A stretch of DNA of 63,851 nt, counting the filler. It is 4 parts of 4 records of this genome, joined end to end, with 100 filler letters (N's around TTAATTAATTAA, not from the genome) between each part and the next. Parts side by side here need not be neighbours in the genome. Positions count along the whole stretch, not along the records: positions 36,722 to 57,515 come from SRR20825006_435; 3 more parts are not named here. One strand, given 5' to 3'. This document shows, in pieces, positions 21,489 through 57,615 of this stretch. The notes beneath the pieces were generated by a model. The model worked only from the letters and a program-made list of their open reading frames with translations, was not told where the DNA came from and ran no database searches. How positions within the stretch are numbered: position 1 is the first letter of the stretch; each line of letters starts with the position of its first letter. Made by a program: the position numbers and the translations under genes.

Positions 21489-21510
21489 GCTACCCCTTTA
21501 TTAGACAGGC

Positions 21511-23515: not shown

Positions 23516-23527
23516 AAGAGGCTCCTG

Positions 23528-23992: not shown

Positions 23993-24276
23993 GTCACATA
24001 TCCTGCATGAATTCGTCTTGCCTCTGCCTATGCGGTGCCAGAGTTATTTTGTCAAAGAGTTTCCGGAAAAGGCGCAGAAAACCTGAAGAAATGCCCACAC
24101 CTTAGCCGTTAATCTTTGTAAGATAATTACCAAAACCTTAACGTTATTGAATTTTTAGTTCAGCATTTATTAATGCACGCCAAGTATAGTGGAGAGTAAC
24201 AGGTCAAGAAGTGATCTGGTCGACTCAGGCAACCAACAATGACTGAATAACGAGGTCGACAAGTAGGAGAAGAACA

Positions 24277-24597: not shown

Positions 24598-24852
24598 GTA
24601 AAGGCAACAGCCCCTCAGACAGAGTTTTCGAGCCCCCAGGCCCAGTGATGACCCCAGAGTTTCGGGGATGAGTAGGTAGAGGCGTCTGCACCCCAGCAGG
24701 CGCCTCTATCATGTTTTAGCCCTAAACCTATACCACCAAAGCCCGGCACCTATGCACCTGACGCAAGTCTGCCATGTCAATTGTCCCGTTGCGTATGGTG
24801 GCTTCACCCAATAGTGTCGGTTCTTTCTGACAAGAATCAGGACAATAAAAAG

Positions 24853-26933: not shown

Positions 26934-26936
26934 CCA

Positions 26937-31184: not shown

Positions 31185-31374
31185 CCGTACACCCCCAGTC
31201 GGTCAGTCAAGATATGATAATCATTATAGAATTCTATCCTAACCTACCAATCAATTATTGTTTATAGCAAGTCGTGCGGCAATGCCGTTAGAATGCCGAT
31301 GAACTTTAGTGCATCTTGCGTTTAGCGGCGCTTTTCGCAAAGTTTGAATAACAACAATATGGGAGGATATACCA

Positions 31375-33267: not shown

Positions 33268-33292
33268 GCTGGTATAAACTTACACCAAAACC

Positions 33293-33318
33293 AAGGCGGG
33301 CATATCTTGCCCGCCTTT
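33293..33318. terminator. Hairpin between convergent pepF and DUF599 genes
   Basis: AAGGCGGGCA-TATCT-TGCCCGCCTT. Confidence 0.65.
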
Positions 33319-33368
33319 CCTGTTTTAGCTCAGGGCCTTTCAGGTAGCGCCCTGACATCATGGTAAGA

Positions 33369-34064
33369 TTAAGGTGTGTGCCGCATGGCATTCAAGGCGC
33401 CGGAGAAAAACTCCCGCCTCACGAGGATCAGTACGACAGACAGGGTGCCCACCATGAAAAGCCAGGGGCTGAAAAACCAGCCCAGCACCGCAAGGCCAAA
33501 AAAATTTGCGCGTAATCCCCTGTTAAAATGATGCCCACATAATGCCGCCAAGCGGGATGCAGCGGCCGCGCGTGCTGCCGCGATATCAGTTCCGCCATCT
33601 TCCGGTTCGCACATGGCACCAACGGTAATCGCACAATAATTGGCGAGCCTTATGGCCCAGGCGAATTTGAAAAATGCATAAACAAAAATCCCCAAAAGCA
33701 GGCTAAGTTTGATAGCCCAGCGGCCCGGTGAAATCGGCTCTGCAAAGGGAATTGAAGAGAAAGCAGTGCTCAGGTCCTCGTTGTAAGCAAGGCCCGCAAT
33801 CAACCCACCAATCACAAAAATATTGGTAGACGCAAAAATGCTGATGCCTGAGACGAGCACCCCAAGTATGGAGCTATCGATCATGCGAAACTCACGAAAC
33901 CGTGCGGCCTGCATCCAATTGTCGCGCTGACGATCCATCGCGGCAGAGATAGACTTCTTCCGAAGCGTGCTATGGTCGGTAATGAGCGTATAAAGACTAA
34001 CGACAACCGCAAAAAACACCAGCGCCCACATGTCTATCGTGCGCATATGATCCAAAATCTGCAT
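33369..34064 (-). CDS. DUF599 family membrane protein
   Basis: FASTNI, YAFFKFAWAIR, HFNRGLRA, RREF. Confidence 0.85.
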   Translation of the reverse strand: MQILDHMRTIDMWALVFFAVVVSLYTLITDHSTLRKKSISAAMDRQRDNWMQAARFREFRMIDSSILGVLVSGISIFASTNIFVIGGLIAGLAYNEDLSTAFSSIPFAEPISPGRWAIKLSLLLGIFVYAFFKFAWAIRLANYCAITVGAMCEPEDGGTDIAAARAAAASRLAALCGHHFNRGLRANFFGLAVLGWFFSPWLFMVGTLSVVLILVRREFFSGALNAMRHTP

Positions 34065-36621: not shown

Positions 36622-36721
36622 NNNNNNNNNNNNNNNNNNNNNNNNNNNNNNNNNNNNNNNNNNNNTTAATTAATTAANNNNNNNNNNNNNNNNNNNNNNN
36701 NNNNNNNNNNNNNNNNNNNNN
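36622..36721. other. Artificial contig spacer
   Basis: N-run + TTAATTAATTAA + N-run. Confidence 0.98.
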
Positions 36722-36997
36722 AGTGTCGCCGGTATCACCTTTCGGGCCTTGTGGGCCTGCCGGGCCCCTCAGTGCTAGCGGCGTCCAGTTGTCTGAGTTG
36801 CTCGGCAGTACGCCCTTGCAGGGCGTGTCGCATACGTAGCTACTGCCCTGCCAAAACACCACGTCGCCGACAAAGTAGTCGGCATCATTGTTGTAGCCAC
36901 CCCGCCAACGCAGGTTTGCAGCCGCCGCCAATGCCTCTACTGCTTTCGCAGCGACTGCCAGGCTGAGTAGCTCGCCGCGCCGATTAGGCTTTCTCAC
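36722..36997 (-). CDS. Phage protein with carbohydrate-binding-like motif and collagen repeats (3'-truncated)
   Basis: WRGGY...YFVGDVVFWQGSSYVC...W followed by GPAGPQGPKGDTGDT. Confidence 0.7.
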
Positions 36998-38483
36998 TAT
37001 CCATGCCTTTCAGCAATGCCATCGCCGCCTCGACCACCGGATCGTCATCACTATTATCTTGCTGGCGCTGACCGTTGCCCGGCTGACGCGGGTCGGTGTC
37101 GAGAGTGAAGCCTTTTTGGTCGAGCAGATCGATAAGCTTTTTGATTTCATCCATTACCTGCTCGGGGTCGCCGCCACGCGAGCGGATCTGGTCGAACAGG
37201 CTTTCGTAGCCCGCGCGCGCCGCTAGGATCATGGCGGGAATTTCTCGCGTTGGGTCTTGCAGTTCGCGCCGTGGCGGGGTCCAACCCCATTCAACGCCGG
37301 TGGTATCAATGCCTGCCAGCATGGCGGCCTCGCTCCACCATTGGGCTATGCGTCCGCATAGCCGAGGGATTAGCAGGGTGCCGCGCCATTGGTCGATATT
37401 GCGCTGAAATTCCAGCCAGCCGATGCGGCCGCTGGAGTAGTTCACTTGGCGCAGGTTGCCGGTGAGCGATTCATAGCTGACGCCGTAAGCAATGGCGATA
37501 GCGCGCTGTTCTTCGTTTACGTATTCCGCGTGGCCGCTCACAGCGGGTGGGTTGTTAAAGATTACGTCTTGCCCGTAGCCCAGCTCGGGGAACATGCCGG
37601 GCTCTAAGCGCTCTGGCAGCAATCCGCCCTTGGCGTCTTGATCCTCGTTTTTAATCACGCCACCGAAACAGGCCGCGACTTTCATCTGCTCCAGGCGAGC
37701 GTCCTGAAAATCATCGAGCGCCTTCATTCGCATAAAAGCGGCGACACCACGCGGAATACCGCGTACCTGCCCTGGGCGAAGCACTTCAAACAGGTGGATC
37801 ACCTGGTCGGCAGAGGCAAAGCGACTGGTTGCTAGCGCACCGCTGCGCTCGCCGGGGTGCTGGTCAAATAGCCAATAGCCTTTACGTTCACCATCTTTGC
37901 TGAACACGACGCCCTGAATAGTTTGCTCGCCGTTGGCACTGCGCTCATTTTTGTTGTGGTCTAGATAGTCGCCCTCCAGCACACGCAAGCGCAGAGGTAC
38001 ACGCAAACCCGGCGTGCGCTTGAATTGCCGCACAATAAGCGCCTCGCCCGATTCAGCCAGGGTGCGCATGGCCAGTGCTTCCATGCCGTAGAGGGTGTGC
38101 AGGCCGTCGTAGTCGGCTAGGGTATTACTGGCCCACAGGTTCATTTCGCGCTGCGCGGTTTCAACACGCTTTTTTGCATTGCCGGTTGCGTAAGGGCGAA
38201 TGCCGGTACCCACGGTGTTGGTGGTGATCACCCTTACAGCCGCTGACGCGTAGGGGTTGTTGCGCACGAGCTCGCGTGACCGGGCACGCAATAGCGGCAA
38301 GCCAGCGCGAATTTCAGCATTGGCGCTGGTATCGCTGCCACGCGTCCAGGTGTTGCGCCGCCCCTTGCCGGCAGCATCGTAGCCGTTTTGGGCATCCAGC
38401 ATTTTAATCTGGGCACGCGCACGCACCCGACTAAGGGCCCGCTGAGGCGAGAAAACAGCAATGCTCTTATCGAGCAGGTTCAT
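36984..38483 (-). CDS. Phage portal protein, lambda family
   Basis: LRARSRELVRNNPYA, RPGQVRGIP, YESLTGN...VNYSSGR, DPTRE. Confidence 0.95.
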   Translation of the reverse strand: MNLLDKSIAVFSPQRALSRVRARAQIKMLDAQNGYDAAGKGRRNTWTRGSDTSANAEIRAGLPLLRARSRELVRNNPYASAAVRVITTNTVGTGIRPYATGNAKKRVETAQREMNLWASNTLADYDGLHTLYGMEALAMRTLAESGEALIVRQFKRTPGLRVPLRLRVLEGDYLDHNKNERSANGEQTIQGVVFSKDGERKGYWLFDQHPGERSGALATSRFASADQVIHLFEVLRPGQVRGIPRGVAAFMRMKALDDFQDARLEQMKVAACFGGVIKNEDQDAKGGLLPERLEPGMFPELGYGQDVIFNNPPAVSGHAEYVNEEQRAIAIAYGVSYESLTGNLRQVNYSSGRIGWLEFQRNIDQWRGTLLIPRLCGRIAQWWSEAAMLAGIDTTGVEWGWTPPRRELQDPTREIPAMILAARAGYESLFDQIRSRGGDPEQVMDEIKKLIDLLDQKGFTLDTDPRQPGNGQRQQDNSDDDPVVEAAMALLKGMDSEKA

Positions 38484-38692
38484 TACTGGTAACCCTTATC
38501 AAATGTGGGTGCGTAATAACGCGGCGCGCGGCTTTGACTGCTGGCTTGCAGCTCGGCCTCCATCGAACGGAGCACCGAGCGCATTTCGGTTAAGCTGCGA
38601 TATTTCACCGTTTTACCGTTGTGTGTGACTTCGGTGGCACCCAGGGCAATCGCCTCTTTGAGTGCATCGACGTGTTCTTGGGTATATGCCAT
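38483..38692 (-). CDS. Head-tail joining protein (gpW-like)
   Basis: ALKEAIALG, VKYRSLTEM; located between terL and portal. Confidence 0.85.
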   Translation of the reverse strand: MAYTQEHVDALKEAIALGATEVTHNGKTVKYRSLTEMRSVLRSMEAELQASSQSRAPRYYAPTFDKGYQ

Positions 38693-40788
38693 TACCGGTC
38701 CCAGTAGTTTGATTTGCGCCGCGCGGTTGGCTTGGCGTCGTCAATGTCTTTGGCTACTAGCGCGCCAGCCTGGTCAAAGAGATTGGCTTGTAGTAGTTGC
38801 CGCTCCATGTCGTCCCACTGCGATGGCCGCAGCTGGTTGACTCGGCGGGCTCTCGCGGCATGCAGTGCGTAGACTTCGCAGTCCCATGCTTCTACCGGCC
38901 GCCCCGGCTTTTGCTCCCACACTTTGCGACCTTTGAGCCGCCGCGACGGTATCTTTGCTTCACCAGTCATTTGCTCGAAGTAGTCAGCGCGCATTTGCTC
39001 TGGGTTGTAGTAGTGGAAGCGACCGGGGCCACTACCCTCAAAGCCCATACTGGTACTGATCAGGTCTTTCGCTTTGTTGGTGCCAACGAAATACAGCTTC
39101 ACGCCAAGGCGGTCGGCCTTGGTCATTTTGTCGGGGCGCCGGTGATCTAAGCTCTTCGCGCGAGGCTGTGTGAATATCTCTGGGTCAACGCTGGATGACC
39201 CCTTAATCGCCATCAGCAGCACGCTCGGGTATTTCTTGCTGCGACTACGCACCCAATTCAGCACCGCCTCGCTGGTGGTGCCGTCGGATGAGTCAATGGA
39301 GATTGCCGAGGCATAAATGGCCGCGCCGCTCGCATGTTTGAAGGGCCTGAATACCAGGTCATCAAGCGCCGACCAGACCGCATCGGTTTCGTCTGCCGTG
39401 CGACGCTCGGCGGCAATCTCGCCCCAGTACATCAGCCAGCTTTCAGCGTCACGCCCCCATGCACGAATGATTACGGCCAAGCGGTTGTGCTGCACGTCGA
39501 TGCCGATGGTGACGAGCAACCCCTTCTCGGGGCAATGCAGCTCGTCGTGCTGTGAATCGGGGTCCGCCAGCGCACGCTCGCGATATACCTCGGCATCTTC
39601 GCGGCTGTCTTTCAGCTCGTAGGGTTTACCGAGCTTTGAGTTCACAAACACGATCTGCTTGGTGTTGTCGCCAATCGCGGCGTAGTGCTCGGCCTCCAGG
39701 TAGTCTTTAACGAGCTCAACAACACCAACGCCCGGCAAGCAGCTGTACAGCTCGTTGAGATTGCAAAAGCCAGCTACACCGGCGAAGGGCTGCGTCGGCA
39801 CCCAGCCGCAGTAGGGGTCGCCCTCTTCCATGGCCGCCGCCACAGTGTTGCGAATGTTTTCCTTGCGCTGGAAATCGTCCCAGACGCTGCCGCAATGAGG
39901 GCAGCAGTAAACCGCCATATCGGGGCGGTTGTAGGCAAAGATCGGGTGCTTCTCGCCGACGGGATCACTACCAGCCTGCCAACCATGGACGTACTCAAAA
40001 TCAAGCACATGCTTCTCGCCACAGTCGTGGCACGCGACGGGCAGCTCGCGCTTATCCGACAGCTCTATGTATTGCTCAACCTTGCTGAAGCCTTTCAGCG
40101 ACGGTGTACCGCCCAGAATTTTCTTTGGGTACCGAACGCGCTTGGTGCGCTCAAATAGCAGCTTGATCGAGTCGCCCTGGTCGCCTACGTTGTCGGCGGC
40201 GTCATCAGGCTCTTCCACAAACACGAAATCGGCTGTCGTCGACTTCACGTTCCCCGCGGCGTTGGACCCGAACATTTCCAGGAACCCGCCATCGAACTCT
40301 TTGCGCAGCATGCTGCCACCAGACTTGCGACTGCCGGTGAAATTGATACGGCTGGCGATCTCTGGTGTTGCCTTGCCAATGGGGTTGAACTTGGTTTGGC
40401 TAAATTTCTTCGCGGCACTGTCGGTGGCAAACATCCCAAGAATGACCCCTGGGTGCCGACAAATGCGCTTAGCGATGTAACAAATCAGGGCCGTGGTCCA
40501 CAGCACCTGCGCGGCTTTCTGGCAGTAAATCTCCGGTGTTGCTGGGTCATCAATTGCCGCAAAAATGCCGTACAAGTGAGGGCCGTAATACAGGTCAAAC
40601 TCTCGCTGAAGCGCGCCAGTTTCGCGAGGCAGCACAATGTTTTTCTGCGCCCACTGCGCCGTTGGCTCAGGAGGCGGTGGTACCAGTTGCTGTATCGTCT
40701 CCGATAATATCTTGGCCAAGTTCTGCCGCGCGTTTTGCAGCAGACTCAAGGGCAAGTCGGAAGGGAGCCCGGATAAACTCATCGTCAA
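38692..40788 (-). CDS. Terminase large subunit (lambda gpA family)
   Basis: KAAQV Walker-A-like, FVEEPD, GGTP, CxxC pairs, GIDVQ nuclease motif, EAWDCEVYA; start codon uncertain. Confidence 0.93.
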   Translation of the reverse strand: MTMSLSGLPSDLPLSLLQNARQNLAKILSETIQQLVPPPPEPTAQWAQKNIVLPRETGALQREFDLYYGPHLYGIFAAIDDPATPEIYCQKAAQVLWTTALICYIAKRICRHPGVILGMFATDSAAKKFSQTKFNPIGKATPEIASRINFTGSRKSGGSMLRKEFDGGFLEMFGSNAAGNVKSTTADFVFVEEPDDAADNVGDQGDSIKLLFERTKRVRYPKKILGGTPSLKGFSKVEQYIELSDKRELPVACHDCGEKHVLDFEYVHGWQAGSDPVGEKHPIFAYNRPDMAVYCCPHCGSVWDDFQRKENIRNTVAAAMEEGDPYCGWVPTQPFAGVAGFCNLNELYSCLPGVGVVELVKDYLEAEHYAAIGDNTKQIVFVNSKLGKPYELKDSREDAEVYRERALADPDSQHDELHCPEKGLLVTIGIDVQHNRLAVIIRAWGRDAESWLMYWGEIAAERRTADETDAVWSALDDLVFRPFKHASGAAIYASAISIDSSDGTTSEAVLNWVRSRSKKYPSVLLMAIKGSSSVDPEIFTQPRAKSLDHRRPDKMTKADRLGVKLYFVGTNKAKDLISTSMGFEGSGPGRFHYYNPEQMRADYFEQMTGEAKIPSRRLKGRKVWEQKPGRPVEAWDCEVYALHAARARRVNQLRPSQWDDMERQLLQANLFDQAGALVAKDIDDAKPTARRKSNYWDR

Positions 40789-49221: not shown

Positions 49222-49869
49222 ATGCAGAGCAACCCAACGGTTCACGCAAGAATAAACGCCGCAGTGCGCCAAACCCGCGACATTAGCGAGCTCATCGGTG
49301 TCTGCAAAGGCGTGTTAGCAGATGGTATAGTGAATTTTGCGGAAGCCGCGTTCATGCTTCAGTGGCTGGAAATGCACAAAGAGTGCCTTGATATTTGGCC
49401 CGCATCGGAGCTCTACACCACGCTAGATACGCTGATAGAAGACGGCCGGCTAAGTAACGACGAAGAGCGCCAACTACTCAGCACACTAATCGGTATTACC
49501 GGCGTGCAAGTAGACCTCAGCACCAATGACACCGAACCGCAGTACGCGCAGACCAGCAGCGAGCTCCCACTCCACGAACCAACTGACGGCCTCATCTTTC
49601 AAGACCGCAACTTCTGCCTGACCGGCACCTTTGAATACGGCACGCGCGCCCAATGCGAAAAACTGGTGGCTGAGCGTGGTGGACTCACACAGAAAGCCCC
49701 TACCAAAAAAACGCATTACCTGGTCATTGGCAACATAGGCAGCCGCGACTGGGCGCACAGTAGCTTTGGCAGGAAAATTCAAAAGGCGGCGGAAATGCGC
49801 CGCGACGACCACGATATTTACATCGTGAGCGAAACATTTTTTACCTCACAGTTAACGGTGTCGCGATGA
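49222..49869 (+). CDS. BRCT-domain protein with N-terminal helical domain
   Basis: ELIGVCKGVLADG..N..EA; FCLTGTF..GTR, THYLVIG, WAHSSFGRKI.KA. Confidence 0.85.
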   Translation: MQSNPTVHARINAAVRQTRDISELIGVCKGVLADGIVNFAEAAFMLQWLEMHKECLDIWPASELYTTLDTLIEDGRLSNDEERQLLSTLIGITGVQVDLSTNDTEPQYAQTSSELPLHEPTDGLIFQDRNFCLTGTFEYGTRAQCEKLVAERGGLTQKAPTKKTHYLVIGNIGSRDWAHSSFGRKIQKAAEMRRDDHDIYIVSETFFTSQLTVSR

Positions 49870-50430: not shown

Positions 50431-50617
50431 TCTAGTCATTCCAGCAACCCGCACCCATGGCAGATGGGGCGCAGCAGGCAACCAGCGCAGAGCCGCACCC
50501 CTTTTGCGGCGTTTTAACGGCTGGCCAGGCCAATAATCTGCAAGCCGGAATTGAAGTTTTCCATAGCCGGTAGCCCCGCCGGTGGCGACAGAGGGGCAAA
50601 ACTTAAGGAGGAGTTTT

Positions 50618-51040
50618 ATGCACGAGCACACAGAGCAACACCTCAACTACCAGCCAGGCTATCGGCTGGCACCGCGAGAAGGCGAAGCGCTGGTATTAGG
50701 CGCCATCGGCAAAACCACCAAAGAAGCCGCAAAAATCATGAACGTAGCGCCGGCCACCGTGAAGGCCTACCAAGACCGCGCCCGAGAAAAGCTTGGCGCC
50801 AAGAACATTGCCCACGCTGTGAGCATCGCCTGGGAAAAAGGCCTGCTTACCGCAAAGCACCTAATGGTTAGCGCGCTGATCCTGTCAGCCGCCTTCGCAC
50901 CGCTCGACGACAACAGCGACGACCTCCGCAGCAATGGCCGCGTAGTGCGCACGCAGCGCCAAGGCCGCAGCGGCCGCCGTCGCGAGAGAACATTCGACTT
51001 CTTGCCACCCGAAATTCAGCCAGAGGAATTGCCAGCATGA
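50618..51040 (+). CDS. LuxR-type HTH protein with Arg-rich C-terminus
   Basis: LAPREGEAL...GKTTKEAAKIMNVAPATVKAY...KLGAKN; AGGAG RBS. Confidence 0.85.
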   Translation: MHEHTEQHLNYQPGYRLAPREGEALVLGAIGKTTKEAAKIMNVAPATVKAYQDRAREKLGAKNIAHAVSIAWEKGLLTAKHLMVSALILSAAFAPLDDNSDDLRSNGRVVRTQRQGRSGRRRERTFDFLPPEIQPEELPA

Positions 51041-51225
51041 ACCGCTCTCCCCTTACCCGAGGCACCACCAAGAAGCTAGTGGGCAACAGCATCAGCGTTG
51101 AGCGCCAGCTGGCGCACCTGGAGCAACAGCAGAAGCTAATGGGCGCGGTATATGTTCGACGCCCCGGCGACCGCGTCAGCATTGTGTACGCCGAAGTGGC
51201 CAGCCACGGAGCCGCCCACAATTGA
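51037..51225 (+). CDS. Hypothetical phage protein
   Basis: Coupled 62-aa ORF. Confidence 0.55.
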   Translation: MNRSPLTRGTTKKLVGNSISVERQLAHLEQQQKLMGAVYVRRPGDRVSIVYAEVASHGAAHN

Positions 51226-51443
51226 ACCCAGAGCTACAAAGAGTGCTTAGCCTGCTGCATACAACCGCAGAGCGCATGGAAGCCATCGAGCGACGAATGG
51301 GCAGCCTGGAGCGCGGCCTAAGCCGCAACAAACTAACAAGCAAAAGCGCCGAGAAAGAAGTAATGACACTGCGCCAGCAAGTCGCGCACAACAGCGAAAT
51401 GATAACCCTGATTACCAAGGCAACAACGGAGCAAAAACCATGA
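51222..51443 (+). CDS. Coiled-coil phage protein
   Basis: Coupled 73-aa ORF. Confidence 0.55.
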   Translation: MNPELQRVLSLLHTTAERMEAIERRMGSLERGLSRNKLTSKSAEKEVMTLRQQVAHNSEMITLITKATTEQKP

Positions 51444-51754
51444 ACGCAGCACCGTTACCCCTACTGAAATACGTGTGCGAAATGCACAACCTACGCCACC
51501 GCGCAGTGGTAAACCGGCTTAAAAAATCAGGCTACCTCAAAACTGGCGAATTTGGCTTGGTGCCCGACTACGCCAACAGCGCCACCAGCGACCATTTCAT
51601 CACCCGAACCGAGAATTACTGGATCCCCATGCCCGGGGGCAACCGCAAAAACTGCGAGCGCACCGTGATTGCCTGCACACCCGCGGGCCAAGAGCTGGTC
51701 GCCAAACTCTGCGCTGACCTCACCAAGCCAGACCAAAGCAGCGAATGCGCATAG
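51440..51754 (+). CDS. Antirepressor KilAC-like domain protein
   Basis: LKKSGYL....P.....HF......T..TPAGQELV pattern. Confidence 0.6.
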   Translation: MNAAPLPLLKYVCEMHNLRHRAVVNRLKKSGYLKTGEFGLVPDYANSATSDHFITRTENYWIPMPGGNRKNCERTVIACTPAGQELVAKLCADLTKPDQSSECA

Positions 51755-51762
51755 GGGTACGC

Positions 51763-52044
51763 ATGTCACAACACGCACCCAGTACAACCCAAAAAGCCCT
51801 GATCAAAGCGCTAGAGCGCGCCGGCACCGCTACGCAAGCCCAGCTCTGCCAGGCCGTAAACCGGCGCCCCGCCACCGTGTCCGCAGCCATGACCCAGCTA
51901 GAACAAGCGGGGCTCGTTAACGCCACATGGCAAGGCCGCCCACGCGAAAAACATTACCGACTACCCCAAGCCAAGAACGCGCGCCGCATCGCTCGCGGCC
52001 CTTGGATCAACCCTCAATGGATGGAGAAACCGCAATGGCTTTGA
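51763..52044 (+). CDS. MarR-like winged-helix protein
   Basis: [36 protein letters not shown]. Confidence 0.75.
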
Positions 52045-52223
52045 TACTCACCCGCCGCATTGGCGAAACCCTAATGGTCGGCGACGACGTCACCGTCACC
52101 GTGCTAGGCACCAAAGGCAACCAGGTGCGCCTGGGCGTAAACGCACCCAAGCACATCGCCGTGCACCGCGAGGAAATTTACGAGCGCGTGCAAGCAAACA
52201 CCAACAAGGACACCGCAGCATGA
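52035..52223 (+). CDS. csrA: Carbon storage regulator CsrA/RsmA homologue (phage-encoded)
   Basis: [52 protein letters not shown]. Confidence 0.95.
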
Positions 52224-52332
52224 TTCGCTGCGAGCCGGAAGAAAAGGGGCTAGCGCCCAGGTGGATCGATAACCGTAATAAAGCGGCAGCAGTGTTTTAC
52301 CCGCCTCGCCCATTAATTTGAGAGTAATTGTC

Positions 52333-52470
52333 ATGAACGAGCACTCCTTGCATCTAAAAGCGTCCTTGAAATGGCGCCCATACATGGCCGCCAAGCTTGC
52401 GTCAGCTGCGTTAATTCTACTGCTTTTTGGTGAAGTGACCATCGCTTTCGACCGAGAGCAAACCCAATGA
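52333..52470 (+). CDS. Small membrane peptide (45 aa)
   Basis: MNEHSL...LASAALILLLFG; ATGA overlap with the next gene; below the ORF-track cutoff. Confidence 0.4.
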   Translation: MNEHSLHLKASLKWRPYMAAKLASAALILLLFGEVTIAFDREQTQ

Positions 52471-52748
52471 AACCCATCGCCGTCTACCGGGGCACCACCA
52501 ACCACGATGGCAAATTCGTCGGCCCCATCCAGCACCCGGGTAAGCGCCGGTACCGCTACCGCGTAGACCTTTGGATAAAAACCGGCAACAGCGCCCTGCT
52601 GCGCGACGAAATCAGCACCAAAGAGCCCGTGCGCCTAAACGACCTGCTCCAAGACCAAGTGCTACCCAACATCGACAGCCTCATTGCCGAAGCCGACCAA
52701 GAAGGCGGCACCCAGCAATACGGCTTTGAAATTTATAAGTGGGGATAA
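52467..52748 (+). CDS. Hypothetical phage protein
   Basis: 93-aa ORF in the early operon. Confidence 0.6.
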   Translation: MKPIAVYRGTTNHDGKFVGPIQHPGKRRYRYRVDLWIKTGNSALLRDEISTKEPVRLNDLLQDQVLPNIDSLIAEADQEGGTQQYGFEIYKWG

Positions 52749-52749
52749 A

Positions 52750-53004
52750 ATGAGCCGCCTCGTGCCCGCCAGCAAATGGATAAACGAAACCTTTGAAGCC
52801 GGTGTATCCACCAAAACCGTCTACAACTGGGTAGCCAATCGCGTCATACCCGGCGTCATCCTCGACGGCAAACCCTTTGTAGACGCCGACAAAGCCGCCG
52901 TACTGCTGGATACCCACACCATCATCACCGCACCCAGCGCCACACCCGTCGACGGCGGCAACGCCACCGTTGCGCAGCTGGTGCAAGGCGGGCTAACCCA
53001 ATGA
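52750..53004 (+). CDS. Excisionase-like HTH protein
   Basis: WINETF..GVSTKTVYNWVANRVIPG...GKPFVD. Confidence 0.7.
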   Translation: MSRLVPASKWINETFEAGVSTKTVYNWVANRVIPGVILDGKPFVDADKAAVLLDTHTIITAPSATPVDGGNATVAQLVQGGLTQ

Positions 53005-53366
53005 CACACCACAACCGCATGCGATGCAGCGCCGAGACCTACCACCAAGCCATGAGCGACGCCCTGCAAAACACACGTGGCACAGATGACGTCTCATGGA
53101 ATAAAGATTTTAAGGCCTCGCTCATTCAGCGCGGCCTATGGCTCACCACCCAGCCTCCGGCGCGCAACACCGCCCTATACCCCAACGGAATGCCCTACCT
53201 AGCACCCCGTTGCTATGGCGCAAAAAACGGCTGGCCGCAAATTACCTATGTTGTATGGATGGTAGACGCCAGCAAAGCATCGCCGCCAACCTGGGTAACA
53301 GCGACACGAATAGGCTGCGCAGCGCTGCTGCTGGTAGCACTGGCTGCGCATTACCTTTTCAGTTGA
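53001..53366 (+). CDS. Hypothetical protein with C-terminal TM segment
   Basis: ATGA-coupled ORF. Confidence 0.6.
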   Translation: MTHHNRMRCSAETYHQAMSDALQNTRGTDDVSWNKDFKASLIQRGLWLTTQPPARNTALYPNGMPYLAPRCYGAKNGWPQITYVVWMVDASKASPPTWVTATRIGCAALLLVALAAHYLFS

Positions 53367-53394
53367 TGTGCATAATCTTGCCGAGGAATAGCTA

Positions 53395-53754
53395 ATGAAG
53401 GACGAATTTCTGGAGCAGTTGGCTGCACTATGCGAGCAATACAGCGCCACTTTTCGATACACCACCAATGACGACGGAATTCATATCGACGTTGGCGGCG
53501 AAGAGGTGTTCGCAGGATTCATGCTGACCGGCAAAGCAGCCGCAAGTGAGCTTCGTGCAGCAAAAAGGGATTTCGCCCGGAGAGCAGGCGACAACAAAGC
53601 AACCGATCAAATGATTGACCGGCTTATGCCGGACCCAGATGGAATATGCTGCCCTCTTTGCCACTATGACGGATGCTGGGACGGCACACCCAAAAGCGAA
53701 AGAAGAGGCGCAATCAGGGAGCTTCTAGAAAAAGCCTTTCGCGAGGAACCCTGA
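53395..53754 (+). CDS. Hypothetical protein; stop codon lies inside the distal attC
   Basis: GAGG RBS; CCPLC..C motif; TGA at 53752-53754. Confidence 0.65.
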   Translation: MKDEFLEQLAALCEQYSATFRYTTNDDGIHIDVGGEEVFAGFMLTGKAAASELRAAKRDFARRAGDNKATDQMIDRLMPDPDGICCPLCHYDGCWDGTPKSERRGAIRELLEKAFREEP

Positions 53755-53834
53755 ACACACGGGCAGGCAAAACGCGCAGCGGTTTGACTGTCCGACGGAG
53801 CGCAGCGGAGTGAACGTGCTGTGATTTGTTAAAA
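53743..53834 (-). repeat. attC site 4 (distal, 92 bp)
   Basis: Minus: TTTTAAC-AAATC-ACA(G)CACG ... CGTGTGT-TCAGG-GTTCCTC; extra base at L'' position 4. Confidence 0.85.
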
Positions 53835-53854
53835 CGCCGGATAAGGACTTGATT

Positions 53855-54055
53855 ATGAGTATTTGTAAGCACGGTACAGATTTAGATGATTACGACTGCA
53901 TGAACTGCGAAAACGAAGACGACCTGATAGCTGAAGCTGCTGGAGATATTCACCACCTGTACATGAATTGCGACGGCGGAGAGGTTCCGCAAATAGAGGA
54001 CATTACTAGAGTGCTGAATTCGCTCGTTGATAATTTGAGTGAAGAGGCGTTTTAA
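53855..54055 (+). CDS. Cassette A gene: small acidic Cys/His protein
   Basis: AAGGA RBS; CKH...CMNC; flanked by GTTAAAACGCC / GGCGTTTTAAC. Confidence 0.75.
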   Translation: MSICKHGTDLDDYDCMNCENEDDLIAEAAGDIHHLYMNCDGGEVPQIEDITRVLNSLVDNLSEEAF

Positions 54056-54121
54056 CCCGCAGGACAGCGGTGAGGAACGAAGCGCAGCGTAGAGACGATC
54101 CGCTGCTACTGATTGTTAAAT
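54050..54121 (-). repeat. attC site 3 (72 bp)
   Basis: Minus: ATTTAAC-AATCA-GTA(G)CAGCGG ... CCGCTGTCC-TGCGG-GTTAAAA. Confidence 0.85.
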
Positions 54122-54134
54122 GCAGGAATTTAAA

Positions 54135-54416
54135 ATGAAGAAACAAAGTAATCCGGCGCCACCGAAAAGCGTGAAGAGGCCGCCGCCCCCACCGGCACCG
54201 CCTCCGCCACGAAGCCCGACCGGGAAGGGAGCGAGCAGACGGCCCGAATTTGATGCTTACAGCAAAATGCTGGCCTGCATACCAACAACGTGGCTTGACC
54301 CGTTGCTGACAGGCCCACACAAGGTTTTGCCTGATGGATATAGCTACAGCCCAAAGGATGTTGAGCGACTGCTGCAGGCGATACGGCACCGCATGGAAAA
54401 AGCTGCGGGCATTTAA
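54135..54416 (+). CDS. Cassette B gene: protein with Pro-rich N-terminus
   Basis: AGGA RBS; RPPPPPAPPPPR; flanked by GTTAAATGC / GCATTTAAC. Confidence 0.7.
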   Translation: MKKQSNPAPPKSVKRPPPPPAPPPPRSPTGKGASRRPEFDAYSKMLACIPTTWLDPLLTGPHKVLPDGYSYSPKDVERLLQAIRHRMEKAAGI

Positions 54417-54536
54417 CCCTGAGTTTTGCGGCCTGCGGAAACGAACACACTGGAGACGATGATGAAGAACGAAACTACCGAGATTGAAACCGATGCGCCG
54501 ACCCAGCAGGTCGCGCCCAACAACGAGTTGTTATCG
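54411..54536 (-). repeat. attC site 2 (126 bp; contains start of cassette C gene)
   Basis: Minus: CGATAAC-AACTC-GTT(G)TTG..GCGACCTGC ... GCAGGCCGCAAAAC-TCAGG-GTTAAAT. Confidence 0.8.
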
Positions 54537-54749
54537 GGCTTTGCGACTGCCGAGGAATTGATTGGCTATTGCGAAATCCACTGCACTACAGAAAGAGCGC
54601 TGTTCAGCGGCAAGCAAATAATCGACATGTTGGTGCTCGCTGGCTACCGCGAGGACACTACGAGTCAGATCGATACGCAAGAGTGGATGTCGGTTCATGG
54701 CGACATGTCCCGCCTCTGCCGAATGGCTCGGGCACGGATGGCCCGATAA
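54459..54749 (+). CDS. Cassette C gene: hypothetical protein
   Basis: GGAG RBS at 54452 inside attC2; core pair GTTATCGGGC / GCCCGATAAC. Confidence 0.75.
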   Translation: MMKNETTEIETDAPTQQVAPNNELLSGFATAEELIGYCEIHCTTERALFSGKQIIDMLVLAGYREDTTSQIDTQEWMSVHGDMSRLCRMARARMAR

Positions 54750-54869
54750 CGACAAAGCTCAGGTGCGGCCAAAAGCCAGTCCTCTAACGAAGACTAGGAG
54801 ATTAAAGCTATGAAGAACTTTACGAAACCCGCGTTGCTTTTGGCCGTCGCCTGGAGCGCCTTGTTAGCG
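54744..54869 (-). repeat. attC site 1 (proximal, 126 bp; encodes signal peptide of cassette D gene)
   Basis: Minus: CGCTAAC-AAGGC-GCT(C)CAGG-CG(A)CGGCCAAAAGC ... GCTTTTGGCCGCA-CCTGAGC-TTTGTC-GTTATCG; canonical box spacing and extrahelical bases. Confidence 0.92.
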
Positions 54870-55073
54870 GGATGCACGAATGCAAATGACGCTCACAGGG
54901 CCCTGACCAATGCCGGGTATACAAACATCCAGACGGGCGGATATGACTGGTTTGCCTGCGGGAATGAAGATTTCTATGCGACAAAATTCAAGGCCACTAA
55001 CCCGGCAGGGAAGCAAGTAAGCGGTGTTGTTTGCTCTGGGCTGCTGTTCAAAAGTGCGACTATCAGGTTTTGA
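54810..55073 (+). CDS. Cassette D gene: small lipoprotein
   Basis: AGGAG RBS; lipobox LLAGC; GYDWFAC...VSGVVCSG; core pair GTTAGCGG / CCGCTAAC. Confidence 0.85.
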   Translation: MKNFTKPALLLAVAWSALLAGCTNANDAHRALTNAGYTNIQTGGYDWFACGNEDFYATKFKATNPAGKQVSGVVCSGLLFKSATIRF

Positions 55074-55110
55074 CCGCTAACCAGTGACTATCAAGCCAAA
55101 GGTCAGTTAA
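55074..55110 (-). other. Putative attI site (crossover G|TT at 55081/55080)
   Basis: GTTAGCG core on the minus strand 45 bp upstream of intI, with no attC hairpin behind it; extent of the site is a guess. Confidence 0.7.
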
Positions 55111-55125
55111 CGCCGGGAGGCAGCT

Positions 55126-56094
55126 ATGAAAGGCAAGGATTTACTACAACAATCAGACCATAAAATGCGGTTTCTTGGGTACTCAAGAGCCACCCGCCGT
55201 AGCTACCTTGGCTGGCTGGCGCAGTATTTCCGTTGGTGCCTGGAAAACCCGACCGGCACAAGCGAGGAAAAAGCCCAGCGCTTTCTGACCCATTTGGCTG
55301 TTGCCCGCACCGTTAGCAGATCAACTCAGCACCAGGCGCTATGTGCCGTGGCATGGTTTTACAAACACATGGCCGCCCAGCCCCTTGGCAACATTGGTCA
55401 ATTCGTCAATACCGCTCGAGGCAGCAAGCTACCCGCCGTGCTATCACAAGACGAGATGCGCCGTTTGCTGGCCGCAATGCGTGGGCAAAACTGGCTCATT
55501 GCTTCCGTGATGTACGGCGGTGGATTGCGACTCACCGAAGCCCTTTCGCTGCGCGTCAAAGACGTAGACGTTGGTCGCCAGCAGGTAACCGTGCGCCAGG
55601 GCAAGGGAAACAAGGATCGCACCACCACCCTATCCAGCTCGATTAGCCAGCAAATTTTGGCCCAGGTAGAGCGCGTTGAACACCAGCATCAACAAGACAT
55701 CGCGGCCGGCTTTGGCGAAGTCTACCTGCCCAATGCCATCGCAAAAAAATACCCCAACGCCCACCGACAAACCGCATGGCAGTACCTTTTCCCCGCCAGC
55801 AAGATCGGAGCATGCCCCGATACCGGCGCACTGCGTCGCCACCACGTGCACCCTACCGCCTTCACCAAAGCGCTAAGGGCCGCAAAAAAGGCGGCGAAGA
55901 TCAACAAACACTTCACCGCCCACGCCCTTCGCCATAGCTTCGCCACACACATGCTGGAGAACGGCGCCGATATCCGCACCGTGCAAGAGCTACTAGGTCA
56001 CAAAGACGTATCGACCACAATGATCTACACGCACGTGATGCAAAAGCACCACGTGCGCAGCCCACTGGAGGCTATAAGCGCCTGCGCAAGTTGA
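55126..56094 (+). CDS. intI: Integron integrase
   Basis: YSRATRRSY, FLTHLA, STQHQAL, LPAVLS, YGGGLR, GKGNKDR, IntI-specific insert EVYLPNAIAKKYPNA..WQYLFPA..RRHH, HALRHSFATH, LLGH, TMIYTHV. Confidence 0.95.
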   Translation: MKGKDLLQQSDHKMRFLGYSRATRRSYLGWLAQYFRWCLENPTGTSEEKAQRFLTHLAVARTVSRSTQHQALCAVAWFYKHMAAQPLGNIGQFVNTARGSKLPAVLSQDEMRRLLAAMRGQNWLIASVMYGGGLRLTEALSLRVKDVDVGRQQVTVRQGKGNKDRTTTLSSSISQQILAQVERVEHQHQQDIAAGFGEVYLPNAIAKKYPNAHRQTAWQYLFPASKIGACPDTGALRRHHVHPTAFTKALRAAKKAAKINKHFTAHALRHSFATHMLENGADIRTVQELLGHKDVSTTMIYTHVMQKHHVRSPLEAISACAS

Positions 56095-56154
56095 CAGCAC
56101 GCCGCCCCACTGACCACTATAAATCCACCACCACACAGCACGGATACCCACGGA

Positions 56155-57393
56155 ATGGCCAGGAAACGCATCGTAGACGGGCTGGAGCTGCCCGAAAACC
56201 TCTACCAGACCCCGCGCAAGGAACCCGGCAAATGGCGCTACAAACGCCCCGATGGCAGCTTCTACACCTTCACCGCGACCACGCAAGACGCCATCGCCGC
56301 CGCGCAAGGCCTCAATGCACAGTTCGCCGCGGGCGCCAAAGTCACCCCAGCCACCAATCCGCAGTACGGCCGCCTCAGCATTCGCCGGCACGTCGAAGAC
56401 TTTATCGACGAGCGCGAGAAGCGCGAACCCAGCCTGCGCAACAAAACCAGCTGGGGCAATCGCAAAGCCTACCTGCGCAGCTACGCCACCCTAAATGCTG
56501 GAAAATCCGTCTCGCAAATCACCTTGCTCGACGTGCAAGCCTGGTGGGACACCCTCACCGGCCACGCCCAGCGCAGCCGACAACCCGAATTTCGCCGGTT
56601 CTTCAACCACCTGCTGGCACGCGGCCTTTGCCCAAAACTTGATGCCAACCCCTTCAGCAGCAGCGACGCCGCACCACGAGTGGAAATGTCAGCCAAGCCA
56701 GCCAAACAGCGCCTGCGCCTCTCTCAAGAGCAATTCTGGCTTATCTACAACCAGGCAGGGGAAAAATACCCATTCCTGCAGATCGCCATGGCCATTAGCC
56801 TCATCACCACCCTACGCCGAGGCGATATCTGCGACCTACAATTCGACGAACATGTGGTCGGCAATCTGCTCAGAAAGCAGATCAACAAAAGCCACGCCCA
56901 GCTCAGCAAAGAATTTGAGCGCCGAGGCGGCAAGGCCGACCCAGCCAACCTAAGCTGGGACCTCAACAAACACCCCCTACTGCGCCAAGTCATCAACCGC
57001 GCCCGCGAACTCAGCCTCAGCCACCAGCGCTGCCCCAGCCTACTCAGCCACAAATACAAACGCCGCTACAAAAGCCAACATCGCAGCCACCCTTACCAGG
57101 TACTACCAAAATTCCTGAGCGACGCCTTCGCCGAGATCCGCGACGAAACCACAGACACAAACGGCAAGAAGCTCTTCGCCGACGTCCAACCAAAGCACCG
57201 CCCCACCTTCCACGAAGTCCGAAGCCTCGCTGGCGACATCTACGCCAACGCAGGCTACACCAAAGCCCAAATCCGAGAGCTCTACGCCCACACAGACGAA
57301 AGCACCACCGAGCGATACCTCAGCGGACACAGTGAAAAATGGCAGGAAATGGACCTCATCATGCCCACAGACGCACTAAGCGGACAATTCTGA
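56155..57393 (+). CDS. int: Prophage tyrosine integrase
   Basis: N-terminal arm-binding region (LPENLY..WRYKRPDG), LRRGDI, PTFHEVRSLA, HT...TERY; adjacent to a tRNA end. Confidence 0.9.
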   Translation: MARKRIVDGLELPENLYQTPRKEPGKWRYKRPDGSFYTFTATTQDAIAAAQGLNAQFAAGAKVTPATNPQYGRLSIRRHVEDFIDEREKREPSLRNKTSWGNRKAYLRSYATLNAGKSVSQITLLDVQAWWDTLTGHAQRSRQPEFRRFFNHLLARGLCPKLDANPFSSSDAAPRVEMSAKPAKQRLRLSQEQFWLIYNQAGEKYPFLQIAMAISLITTLRRGDICDLQFDEHVVGNLLRKQINKSHAQLSKEFERRGGKADPANLSWDLNKHPLLRQVINRARELSLSHQRCPSLLSHKYKRRYKSQHRSHPYQVLPKFLSDAFAEIRDETTDTNGKKLFADVQPKHRPTFHEVRSLAGDIYANAGYTKAQIRELYAHTDESTTERYLSGHSEKWQEMDLIMPTDALSGQF

Positions 57394-57489
57394 CCAAAAA
57401 AAGGGTTTTGTTCAAAACGCGAAAATCAGTGTTCACTTTTGTTCATCGCCATAGCGGGCGCTCGCAACACACTGATTTAAAAAGAGAAT

Positions 57490-57515
57490 TGGTACGACCG
57501 AGTGGATTCGAACCA
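57490..57515 (-). tRNA. tRNA 3' end (Val-like), probable prophage att core
   Basis: Minus strand reads TGGTTCGAATCCACTCGGTCGTACCA, resembling the 3' end of tRNA-Val(GAC); anticodon not visible. Confidence 0.7.
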
Positions 57516-57615
57516 NNNNNNNNNNNNNNNNNNNNNNNNNNNNNNNNNNNNNNNNNNNNTTAATTAATTAANNNNNNNNNNNNNNNNNNNNNNNNNNNNN
57601 NNNNNNNNNNNNNNN
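57516..57615. other. Artificial contig spacer
   Basis: N-run + TTAATTAATTAA + N-run. Confidence 0.98.

Follow-up and report, generated by a model that had tools for sequence, protein, structure and literature searches.

Of 10,705 phage genomes surveyed, three carried complete integrons and one an In0, according to the portions of Qi et al. 2023 (PMC9892861) that deal with phage-borne integrons. The integron of the Shewanella prophage vB_SspM_M16-3 (MZ568829) is complete (intI, attI and attC array) and lies in a temperate phage. Because those portions report that its IntI is 95% identical to the host chromosomal IntI and that the prophage is thought to be cryptic, this integron looks like a capture and not like a phage-adapted lineage. 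The same text describes the integron of Vibrio anguillarum phage Va_90-11-286_p16 as a piece of the host sedentary chromosomal integron taken on excision, and those of a P1 isolate as transposon-borne class 1 integrons; both place an integron integrase gene on a temperate-phage record and, by that description, neither is embedded in a phage operon. CALINs, attC clusters without an integrase, are also described there as bringing attC-bounded small accessory genes into phages, and the passages on orientation make no mention of bottom-strand-coded genes.

The window studied here, the whole stretch of 63,851 nucleotides of DNA that was analysed, is a concatenate of pieces joined via N-linkers. One piece, a partial temperate-phage genome, carries what we consider, at a probability of roughly 85%, to be a complete integron resident in a temperate lambda-like phage and recently active on an evolutionary timescale (Table 1). 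The first-pass annotation had proposed a complete integron within a temperate phage early operon at 53743–56094, and all elements are present there. Its accompanying remark, that it knew of no well-characterised phage-resident system of such a layout, needs trimming: phage-borne integrons have been published, going by the portions of PMC9892861 cited above, and the novelty is smaller to that extent, while the exclusively bottom-strand genes do set the locus apart from the M16-3 integron.

As in the published phage-borne integrons, the components lie inside a phage genome, with portal, TerL and int on the same piece. The M16-3 array shares the attC L-box geometry and has its attC top strand opposite intI; in contrast, its IntI is just 42.9% identical to that of the window, its annotation puts the cassette genes on the top strand and divergent from intI, the distance from intI to its first cassette border is ~300 nt rather than 45 nt, and its record has an annotated LexA site. 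Identity of the window IntI to the Va_90-11-286_p16 and P1-isolate integrases is 37.9% and 38.8%, respectively. Unlike the phage CALINs, as far as the cited portions describe them, the locus has an integrase and a candidate attI, kept across relatives. With classical integrons (VchIntIA, VCR sites) it shares the integrase family, attC architecture, crossover at AAC, a putative attI beside the intI 5' end and cassette-specific core pairs. In classical integrons, however, Pc drives genes carried on the top strand, whereas here, at the same attC polarity, the bottom strand carries all four genes and intI runs in their direction. Two other assignments were considered and rejected, namely the mobile integron classes 1–5 (38.8% identity to IntI1 records; phage context) and a sedentary chromosomal integron (four cassettes, dissimilar attCs of 72–126 nt, phage genes on both sides).

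Table 1. Features of the integron-carrying piece (window coordinates; the strand of a cassette is that of its attC top strand).
Feature	Coordinates	Strand	Basis or remarks
Integron-carrying N-free piece, 20.8 kb	36723–57516		linkers at ends
Portal	36984–38483	-	PHROG 21, E 5e-88
TerL	38692–40788	-	PHROG 15, E 4e-152
Co-directional operon, ending with phage int	46838–57393	+	
Three phage early genes 5' of the array	52684–53004, 53001–53366, 53395–53754	+	ORF calling
Cassette 4, 307 bp	53749–54055	-	attC 53743–53834; 11-nt core pair, covariance model, L-box
Cassette 4 ORF, 66 aa	53855–54055	+	
Core pair, cassette 4	GTTAAAACGCC 53828 / GGCGTTTTAAC 54046		
Cassette 3, 361 bp	54056–54416	-	attC 54050–54121; core pair, covariance model, L-box
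Cassette 3 ORF, 93 aa	54135–54416	+	proline-rich
Core pair, cassette 3	GTTAAATGC 54115 / GCATTTAAC 54409		
Cassette 2, 333 bp	54417–54749	-	attC 54411–54536; 10-nt core pair, L-box, weak covariance model
Cassette 2 ORF, 96 aa from ATG	54459–54749	+	start inside attC
Core pair, cassette 2	GTTATCGGGC 54530 / GCCCGATAAC 54741		
Cassette 1, 331 bp	54750–55080	-	attC 54744–54869; core pair, covariance model, L-box
Cassette 1 ORF, 87 aa	54810–55073	+	start inside attC loop; phrog_902, E 6e-25
Core pair, cassette 1	GTTAGCGG 54863 / CCGCTAAC 55074		
attI-like stretch, 45 nt	55081–55125	-	first cassette border to intI start codon; 8-locus alignment
intI, integron integrase, 322 aa	55126–56094	+	TIGR02249; 2a3v alignment
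Phage tyrosine integrase (int), 412 aa	56155–57393	+	Pfam Phage_integrase, 28.1 bits; phrog_1 integrase, E 4.2e-22
tRNA gene, 3' part, at piece end	57490–57516	-	read from sequence

The recombinase encoded beside the array belongs to the integron integrase family. It matches NCBIfam TIGR02249 ('integron integrase') with 367 bits against a cut-off of 265 and over the full length of the profile (protein residues 7–316 on positions 2–314 of 315). Alignment to VchIntIA (IntI4, PDB 2a3v) extends over residues 14–314 on 13–317 (E 3.1e-70), without a gap over 116–217, the IntI-specific segment included, and with a single two-residue gap close to the C-terminus over 218–314; a 322-aa tyrosine recombinase with the IntI-specific insertion, as initially described, is thus what the gene encodes. 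The reading frame is open, a Shine-Dalgarno-like GGGAGG lies 7 nt 5' of the start, and R135, K160, H266, R269, H292 and Y301, which we take to be the tyrosine-recombinase catalytic positions, are unchanged across 14 aligned relatives. IntI is presumably catalytically active.

Each of the four units of the array has its own perfect GTTA../..TAAC core pair (8, 9, 10 and 11 nt in length), such that the 5' end of every cassette is complementary to its own R'', the signature of a circle junction. We searched the region 53700–55130 for GTT-led perfect pairs of ≥8 nt, 120–600 nt apart. Four were observed; among 2000 dinucleotide-preserving shuffles, 1794 yielded none, 196 one, 10 two and 0 more. When the unit borders are set at the A|C of each ..AAC, the resulting units agree to the nucleotide with the lengths and positions given in the first-pass annotation, which had also reported the cassette-specific pairs. 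For the leftmost border, at 53749, support comes both from the L-box register and from a 307-nt deletion joint found in nature.

All four attC sites have the minus strand as their top strand. On that strand they read AAC, a 5-nt spacer, an 8-nt L'' with an extra base at position 4, a 7-nt L', a 5–6 nt spacer and GTT, with 7, 6, 6 and 7 of 7 L-box Watson-Crick pairs in cassettes 1–4, respectively. This L-box test, for which the null pass rate is 0.7% per site, is passed by 4/4 window sites with minus as top and by 0/4 with plus as top, by 16/19 versus 1/19 sites across the lineage, and by 11/11 sites of the published Shewanella phage M16-3 array versus 0/11 on the opposite strand. The four hairpins with R''-L''-L'-R' spacing and an extra base at L'' position 4 that had been noted at the outset are therefore borne out by the test. 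The usual extra L'' base on the attC bottom strand is G; here it is G only in cassette 1 and C in the other three sites. The four sites are dissimilar in sequence and 72–126 nt long.

A covariance-model check was run on the whole window with filters off, using a model (R1) trained on 44 attCs that came from 12 unrelated integron loci. The sites of cassettes 1, 4 and 3 ranked first to third (26.4 bits, E 3.6e-4; 19.9 bits, E 0.014; 17.3 bits, E 0.06), and that of cassette 2 was weak at rank 8 (9.3 bits, E 5.3), yet fell exactly at its predicted borders; all four matches were on the minus strand and at predicted borders, and no attC match was obtained in the upstream phage genes (52684–53754). 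Some results weigh against the attC reading. In minimum-free-energy folds of the array form, an end-to-end hairpin was convincing in only one of the four sites (54737–54876, z -2.8, -3.6), and the fold of the cassette 2 site was weak (z -0.4 for the array form and -1.3 for a circular model). A strict motif scanner found 1/4 sites, and its 11 window-wide matches compared with 7–22 in shuffles are at chance level.

The attI-like stretch, which separates the start codon of intI from the border of cassette 1, also contains the ribosome-binding site of this gene and, on sequence grounds, probably works as attI. In an 8-locus alignment, similarity starts exactly to the right of the ..TAAC at this candidate site and resolves into two conserved types, one in the window, L107 and L187 and the other in L108, L109, L111 and L112. 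Because this stretch measures only 45 nt including the ribosome-binding site, divergent Pint and Pc promoters could not fit into it.

Arrays vary next to the conserved attI-intI. L107, with an IntI 77% identical and the same attI type, holds three other cassettes, and L111 holds four other cassettes beside another intI allele; the two have an upstream gene in common (its first 126 nt) and homologous genes downstream of intI. One cassette is common to L187 and L108, where it sits at two different attI types, and differs between them by 7, 2 and 28 changes at codon positions 1, 2 and 3 (24 synonymous and 10 non-synonymous codon changes). An invariant gene set beside close IntI homologues, which would have spoken against cassette exchange, is thus not what L107, L111, L108 and L187 display. 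Metagenomic evidence came from Logan contigs of four runs (X1–X4) in three studies, which are short, of depth 5–17, and have some joints marked 'between: not known'. In X1 and X2 a joint 53746->54054 skips 307 nt, that is, cassette 4; X1 record 6 carries 54053–54419 (cassette 3) at 0 differences, between flanks that do not match; and in contigs of X3 and X4, attI-intI is present rightward of 55078 and is preceded by different sequence. Within a 5-nt ambiguity, the positions of these contig joints coincide with the predicted A|C crossover.

Such variation might instead be the product of ordinary phage mosaicism, that is, homologous or illegitimate recombination at gene borders, around an integron that was captured once and whose IntI no longer moves cassettes. 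Phage mosaic breaks do occur at ordinary gene borders close by, where there are loose ends at 53002 and 53367 and one record breaks at 52753/52754, and one attC is weak in the covariance model. We nevertheless regard this explanation as improbable, given joints that remove exactly one cassette at the predicted crossover, the recurrence of an unchanged cassette 3 between unlike flanks, a single cassette found at both attI types, and an intI frame that is open with invariant catalytic-type residues. The variable arrays and border joints instead support the earlier proposal that the phage swaps accessory genes through its integron.

Phage genes identified with Pfam and PHROG flank the integron on both sides within one N-free piece. 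The phage int has a weak Arm-DNA-bind_1 match (lambda arm-binding domain; 19.1 bits against a cut-off of 22). IntI had been placed between a xis-like gene and the phage int; the int is where it was expected, but the xis-like label is less secure, as the gene at 52684–53004 shows only a sub-threshold HTH_17 match (15.2 bits against a cut-off of 27) and no family was assigned to it in a PHROG profile search, and its product is possibly an excisionase-type HTH protein. At the right end, the tRNA fragment is likely, from its sequence, to be the core of the phage attachment site; ARAGORN detected no complete tRNA at this position. The piece stops at an N-linker right after 57516 and is joined to no host chromosome inside the window, and because the window is an N-linked concatenate, the sequence to the right of 57516 is not the true neighbour of the phage.

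The composite nature of the window also bears on a second and very improbable alternative, an assembly or binning artefact in which phage DNA was wrongly joined to an integron of a bacterial chromosome, or in which that integron merely lies beside a prophage. Besides the N-linkers, it could draw on the piece at 14167–36621, which is 100% identical over 19,834 nt tested to a genome without the integron piece, and on IMG/VR prophage calls, which may take in host flanks. However, the integron lies within a single N-free piece between phage genes, and contigs of other studies run from the upstream gene into the cassette array (X1, X2) and, in X3 record 22 (55743–56166), from intI into int. The layout moreover recurs in L108, L111, L187, L189 and L191: L108 has the order Erf, RecE, SSB, HNH, one cassette, intI, excisionase, int, and in L187, L189 and L191 intI is followed by the phage integrase. 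In L190 and L192, intI is followed by TerL.

A point missing from the first-pass annotation is that the cassette ORFs are inverted relative to those of classical cassettes. All four lie on the attC bottom (plus) strand, co-directional with intI and the phage operon, so that, read along the operon, every unit has its attC ahead of its gene. The longest minus-strand ORFs in the four units are 36, 0, 25 and 54 aa, and none of the four cassettes shows the classical arrangement of promoterless genes on the attC top strand, divergent from intI and read from Pc. In 11/11 exactly delimited units (four in the window, three in L107, four in L111), the plus-strand ORF fills the unit and stops at its border. 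Coding on this strand is also favoured by the codon-position pattern of the cassette common to L187 and L108 and by the phrog_902 match of the cassette 1 ORF. The layout is thus classical in that the putative attI abuts the intI 5' end and the attC top strand lies opposite intI, and unusual in its bottom-strand genes, its 45-nt attI-like stretch and its single co-directional string of cassettes, intI and int.

The strand assignment itself could be wrong, with plus as the attC top strand, the ORFs as classical cassette genes and intI downstream of the array. As happens in many classical cassettes, stop codons do fall within the ..TAAC boxes or immediately ahead of them, and the core-pair signature is symmetric and gives no polarity alone. 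We give this reading hardly any weight: the L-box and extra-base test with plus as top fails throughout the window and in all but one lineage site, all four covariance-model matches have minus as top, two ORFs would be interrupted by the crossovers at 54530 and 54863, a conserved attI-like sequence lies between array and intI, and the natural 307-nt deletion fits the minus-top borders. In 'inverted-integrase' integrons (Treponema/Chlorobium type), the array lies downstream of intI and the attC top strand is on the intI strand. The integron of the window was not assigned to that type, its array being upstream of the intI 5' end and its attC top strand opposite intI; the inverted-integrase layout is present in L022, L059 and L080.

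Equally hard to credit is the proposal that the hairpins are terminators or RNA elements of phage morons and that the IntI-like protein is otherwise used (dimer resolution, second integrase), for although the attC sites lie on the mRNA strand 5' of each ORF and could fold as RNA, and two phage recombinases side by side are unusual, there is no plus-strand terminator-like site within the array (the only one lies inside intI, 55338–55352), every unit has its own core complementarity, the sites fit a model built from bona fide attCs, and IntI is a full-length member of the integron integrase family.

Returning to a recently active, phage-resident integron, lambdoid early-left operons offer a precedent for its location: their moron regions, between the recombination genes and xis/int, hold small, variable, non-essential genes on an early transcript. 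The locus appears to match these regions in genomic position and kind of cargo, but here a dedicated site-specific recombinase would move the genes as attC-bounded units, in place of mosaic recombination alone. The cassettes, intI and phage int sit at the end of the early-left (PL-like) operon of the phage and are probably transcribed together and early. Cargo in the lineage comprises a phrog_902 protein with a lipoprotein-like N-terminus, a Lar restriction-alleviation protein, small zinc-ribbon proteins and an RHH protein; the cassette 1 product is a predicted lipoprotein, from its N-terminus read by eye, and the cargo functions appear to be of phage type.

Upon infection or induction, an early transcript would express cargo and IntI together; IntI could then excise cassettes by attC x attC recombination and insert cassette circles at attI, and related phages may thereby swap small accessory genes. 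Cleavage of attC occurs within the 5'-AAC-3' of the bottom strand, and extrahelical bases lie on the opposite arm, according to the relevant part of Nivina et al. 2016 (PMC5027507). With the attC top strand lying opposite intI, it is the plus strand of the window that serves as the recombinogenic bottom strand. Because bottom-strand selectivity fixes insertion orientation, only bottom-strand-coded cassettes would be expressed in the operon and hence kept. More tentatively, and with somewhat less than even confidence, we suggest that the locus may represent a phage-adapted integron branch, with an IntI found so far only on viral or prophage contigs and located inside phage operons beside int or TerL, a minimal attI fused to the intI ribosome-binding site, and a 'mirror' cassette pool coded on the attC bottom strand. 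In such a branch, early transcription would both express cargo and IntI and leave the recombinogenic strand as single-stranded non-template, coupling shuffling to infection or induction, and the cargo would be phage weaponry (anti-restriction, exclusion).

Integrons have been viewed as bacterial devices, and the few published phage cases look like accidental captures. The present case differs in that integrase, insertion site and cassettes are wired into the phage early operon, related phages hold other cassettes at the same spot, environmental contigs show gain and loss of cassettes exactly at the recombination points, and the strand that is non-coding in classical integrons is here the one that carries every gene. 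Bottom-strand coding bears on how cassettes are made and on how insertion orientation is selected. Should the pattern prove general, phages would own a separate cassette pool and a fast exchange route for counter-defence and exclusion genes.

The window is non-contiguous genome sequence: its four pieces are joined at three N-runs that carry a TTAATTAATTAA stop-linker (14111, 36666 and 57560), and each piece has a tRNA fragment at its end. The tested part of the piece at 14167-36621 (window 14167-34000, 19,834 nt) was 100% identical to the complete genome G001, the outer pieces reached only 65-76% identity to it, and the integron piece (36723-57516; 20.8 kb, without N) had no match in this nearest genome. 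Islands or contigs bounded by tRNAs seem to have been concatenated here, and they may stem from more than one organism. As the pieces are joined and the integron piece is absent from G001, the phage does not adjoin the histidine-kinase region that lies right of 57616, nor does the window reveal the phage's host.

The integron piece is phage DNA (see table). At its end lies the 3' portion of a tRNA gene; ARAGORN reported no tRNA. The named relatives of its TerL, at 56-62% identity, belong to Pseudomaricurvus, Teredinibacter, Thalassocella and Exilibacterium (marine Cellvibrionales-type Gammaproteobacteria), and among named phages Pseudomonas phage KT1 (45%) and Marinobacter phage PS3 (41%) come closest; from this we infer a marine gammaproteobacterial host. 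The early operon also encodes a BRCT-domain protein (49222-49869, plus; phrog_3989, with weak ligase-like matches), a GerE/LuxR-type regulator (50582-51040, plus; 'sigma factor' in PHROG) and, two genes before the xis-like gene, a CsrA-like regulator (52035-52223, plus; phrog_9500, E 1.5e-30).

Coordinates of joints, phage genes and attC sites in the window. R1 is a covariance model of attC.
Feature	Position	Strand	Remarks
N-runs around the TTAATTAATTAA linker	14067-14166, 36622-36722, 57517-57615		Joints between unrelated pieces
Portal	Integron piece	minus	PHROG 21, E 5e-88
Large terminase (TerL)	Integron piece	minus	PHROG 15, E 4e-152
Plus-strand gene string	From about 46.8 kb	plus	GerE/LuxR-type regulator, CsrA-like regulator, integron, tyrosine integrase
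Tyrosine integrase (int)	56155-57393	plus	In plus-strand gene string
attC of cassette 1	54744-54869	minus	R1 rank 1, 26.4 bits, E 3.6e-4
attC of cassette 2	54411-54536		R1 rank 8 of 9 matches, 9.3 bits, E 5.3
attC of cassette 3	54050-54121	minus	R1 rank 3, 17.3 bits, E 0.06
attC of cassette 4	53743-53834	minus	R1 rank 2, 19.9 bits, E 0.014

The first-pass annotation had read the 322-aa open reading frame beside the array (55126-56094) as an integron integrase with the IntI-specific insertion. Both points were confirmed: the protein scored 367 bits with NCBIfam TIGR02249 (cut-off 265) over profile positions 2-314 of 315, and its residues 14-314 aligned with the solved Vibrio cholerae integron integrase 2a3v (E 3.1e-70), without gaps through the IntI-specific segment. 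Aligned with 13 relatives, the protein shows no variation at R135, K160, H266, R269, H292 or Y301. The four core pairs held up as perfect across 8, 9, 10 and 11 nt, and four GTT-led pairs within 1.4 kb compare with a maximum of two in 2000 dinucleotide-preserving shuffles. The unit borders proposed earlier are exactly those given by crossover between A and C of each ..AAC.

Minimum free energy folding in array form gave end-to-end closure at only one of the four sites (54737-54876, z -2.8 and -3.6). Circle-type folding with the cassette's own 5' end gave good folds for three of the four (z -3.4 to -4.2), and the site at 54411-54536, folded as a circular junction, did not fold well (z -1.3). 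A strict attC motif scanner, run window-wide, was unspecific, with 11 matches compared to 7-22 in 20 shuffles, and caught one of the four sites. Since the scanner performed no better than chance and folding was only partly convincing, the L-box test was limited to hairpins defined by core pairs alone, with controls. In order, the register comprised AAC, a spacer of 4-6 nt, L'' (8 nt, its extra base at position 4), L' (7 nt), a spacer of 5-6 nt and GTT; at least six of seven Watson-Crick pairs constituted a pass. With minus as the top strand, 4/4 window sites and 16/19 sites in the window plus nine related loci passed, compared to 0/4 and 1/19 with plus as the top strand, counts that carry a small bias from the AAC of the outermost hairpin in each array having been picked by eye among few candidates. 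Shuffled hairpin interiors passed at a rate of 0.7% per site, and the published, IntegronFinder-validated array of Shewanella prophage M16-3 gave 11/11 versus 0/11 by strand. According to Nivina et al. 2016 (PMC5027507), IntI cuts the bottom strand within 5'-AAC-3' and the extrahelical bases sit on the opposite arm; applied to the window, this rule makes plus the attC bottom strand.

R1 was trained on 44 attC sites from 12 integron loci unrelated to the window lineage, with at most five sites per locus and a box spacing of up to 95 nt; these sites were chosen by core pairs and the L-box test, so that their fit to the structure holds by construction. Searched against the entire window on both strands with filters off, the model returned as its top three matches three of the predicted attC sites, on the minus strand and with the predicted borders.

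The polarity of the platform is classical, as attI adjoins the 5' end of intI and the attC top strand is opposite to intI. Unlike in classical gene placement, all four cassette ORFs lie on the plus strand, that is, the attC bottom strand. Each spans its unit, with the stop codon at the border or a few bases before it, and the longest minus-strand ORFs in the four units are 36, 0, 25 and 54 aa. By a crude longest-ORF comparison, the units of 12 canonical control arrays fell on the top strand in 68 of 89 cases, on the bottom in 20 and on neither in one. Plus-strand coding of cassette 1 is backed by a phrog_902 match (E 6e-25). The cassette common to the related loci L187 and L108 also supports the plus strand as coding: first, second and third codon positions differ 7, 2 and 28 times, respectively, and 24 synonymous changes stand against 10 non-synonymous ones.

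The start codons of cassettes 1 (54810) and 2 (54459), with their Shine-Dalgarno sequences, fall in the loop of the respective 126-nt attC (54744-54869 and 54411-54536), and the first 18-26 codons form its 3' arm. This stretch is thus under two constraints, one from recombination and one from protein coding. The attC-overlapping codons of cassette 1 specify a signal-peptide-like N-terminus. Pfam, NCBIfam and PHROGs held nothing for three of the four cassette proteins, save a marginal phrog_13182 match (E 0.0019), and the cassette 3 ORF (54135-54416) had no relative in IMG/VR. Twenty viral contigs of IMG/VR (L267-L286), some of them 170-235 kb long, encode relatives of the cassette-1 protein at 43-62% identity. 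No attC was found at E<=1 near these homologues of ORF 54810-55073 (20 IMG/VR loci, 95,448 nt); therefore, this gene family is not cassette-borne elsewhere, and it is common phage cargo outside integrons.

The first cassette and the start codon of intI are 45 nt apart, a gap that leaves no room for divergent promoters; the distance is 45-48 nt among six relatives, compared to about 300 nt in Shewanella phage M16-3. A weak consensus scan of 52400-57500 returned no plus-strand promoter-like site, and its only plus-strand terminator-like match lies inside intI; the scan is uninformative by its totals, with 1 promoter-like site where 2.3 were expected and 10 terminator-like sites where 8.9 were. 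Given the plus-strand ORFs and the 45-nt gap, the cassettes, intI and int are most likely carried on the early-left transcript of the phage.

Public sequencing data provided a view of variation at the locus. Eighteen runs have words in common with 53300-56400, each holding at most 27% of them. Logan contigs from four runs (X1-X4; three studies) were compared with 51000-57500; being short and of low depth, they show presence, not absence, and only joints were used, with stretches without contig cover, such as 53821-54037 and 54472-54905, left out of the evidence. The joint 53746->54054, found in X1 and X2 (one study), omits 307 nt with a 5-nt ambiguity and is a precise loss of cassette 4. Record 6 of X1 contains cassette 3 (54053-54419) with 0 differences, between flanks unlike those of the window (75 nt on the left, 225 nt on the right), and contigs of X3 and X4 match attI and intI from 55078 on, with other sequence leftward. 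The X2 joint 55136->56086, marked 'between: not known', would fit a swap of intI for a divergent allele. Contigs of X1 and X2 bridge the upstream gene to the array, and record 22 of X3 bridges intI to int.

The closest IntI proteins (P0001-P0008) are 60-77% identical to that of the window; a scan of genome contigs gave none above 52% local identity (46% full-length), and no close isolate, among the matches listed. The 2.6-kb metagenome contig L107 (IntI 77%) has the attI type of the window and, in place of its cassettes, three different small genes on the plus strand, all of them with core pairs of their own. A second contig of that metagenome, L111, has in common with L107 an upstream phage gene, its first 126 nt identical, and homologous genes downstream of intI (L111, 2200-3912; L107, 1990-2590), followed farther downstream in L111 by an excisionase-like gene and a phage integrase. 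Its four cassettes are all unlike those of L107, its attI is of a different type, and its intI is a different allele, 53% identical to that of the window. From this comparison, the whole integron module appears to have been exchanged on one phage backbone. L108, the end of a 164-kb contig, encodes Erf, a RecE-like exonuclease, SSB, endonucleases, one cassette and intI, then an excisionase-domain protein and a phage integrase; it carries the same cassette as L187 with a different attI type. When the intI-proximal junctions of eight loci are aligned, ..TAAC marks the exact start of similarity, and two conserved attI types are apparent.

In IMG/VR, at least 514 of at least 569 candidate stretches encode a relative, the best 80 of which were kept. 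Across 982 kb from 94 viral or metagenome loci, R1 gave 117 matches at E<=1, 114 of them on the strand opposite intI; judged by a crude ORF comparison, plus-strand genes are probably present in most of these arrays too. Among the recognisable cargo of relatives are a Lar restriction-alleviation protein (42.1 bits, cut-off 28.6) and an RHH protein (24.2 bits, cut-off 20.5). A phage integrase comes after intI in L187, L189 and L191; in L190 (1991-4869) and L192 (7001-9854), both from IMG/VR, TerL takes that place, directly after intI and overlapping or abutting it. The location of the integron, beside int in some phages and beside TerL in others, thus differs between phage types. Three loci in Acidobacteriota and Planctomycetota MAGs (L022, L059, L080) have arrays downstream of intI, an 'inverted-integrase' layout, and pass the L-box test on the intI strand. 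A quick IntI tree of 47 rows (one dropped for a short ORF; array labels from the crude strand call) placed the window in a 16-row group composed entirely of viral or metagenome contigs, with 0 canonical arrays and an SH-aLRT support of 90, under the 95 mark.

As reported in Qi et al. 2023 (PMC9892861), a screen of 10,705 phage genomes yielded three complete integrons and one In0. By that account they comprise part of a chromosomal integron from Vibrio, class 1 integrons carried by a P1 isolate, and the Shewanella M16-3 prophage, which is probably cryptic and whose IntI is 95% identical to a host IntI. A phage-borne integron as such is therefore not new. New in this case are an integron embedded in an operon, a minimal attI, cassettes coded consistently on the bottom strand, and arrays that differ on a single phage backbone; the main texts of open-access papers yielded no account of any of these, phage integrons with bottom-strand-coded cassettes included.

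Together, all elements described in the first-pass annotation are present, and the data support the reading of the window as a complete integron in a temperate phage, recently active on an evolutionary scale. The integron would be competent for recombination, its cassettes would supply the phage with cargo of putative function, and it looks like a member of a phage-adapted lineage.
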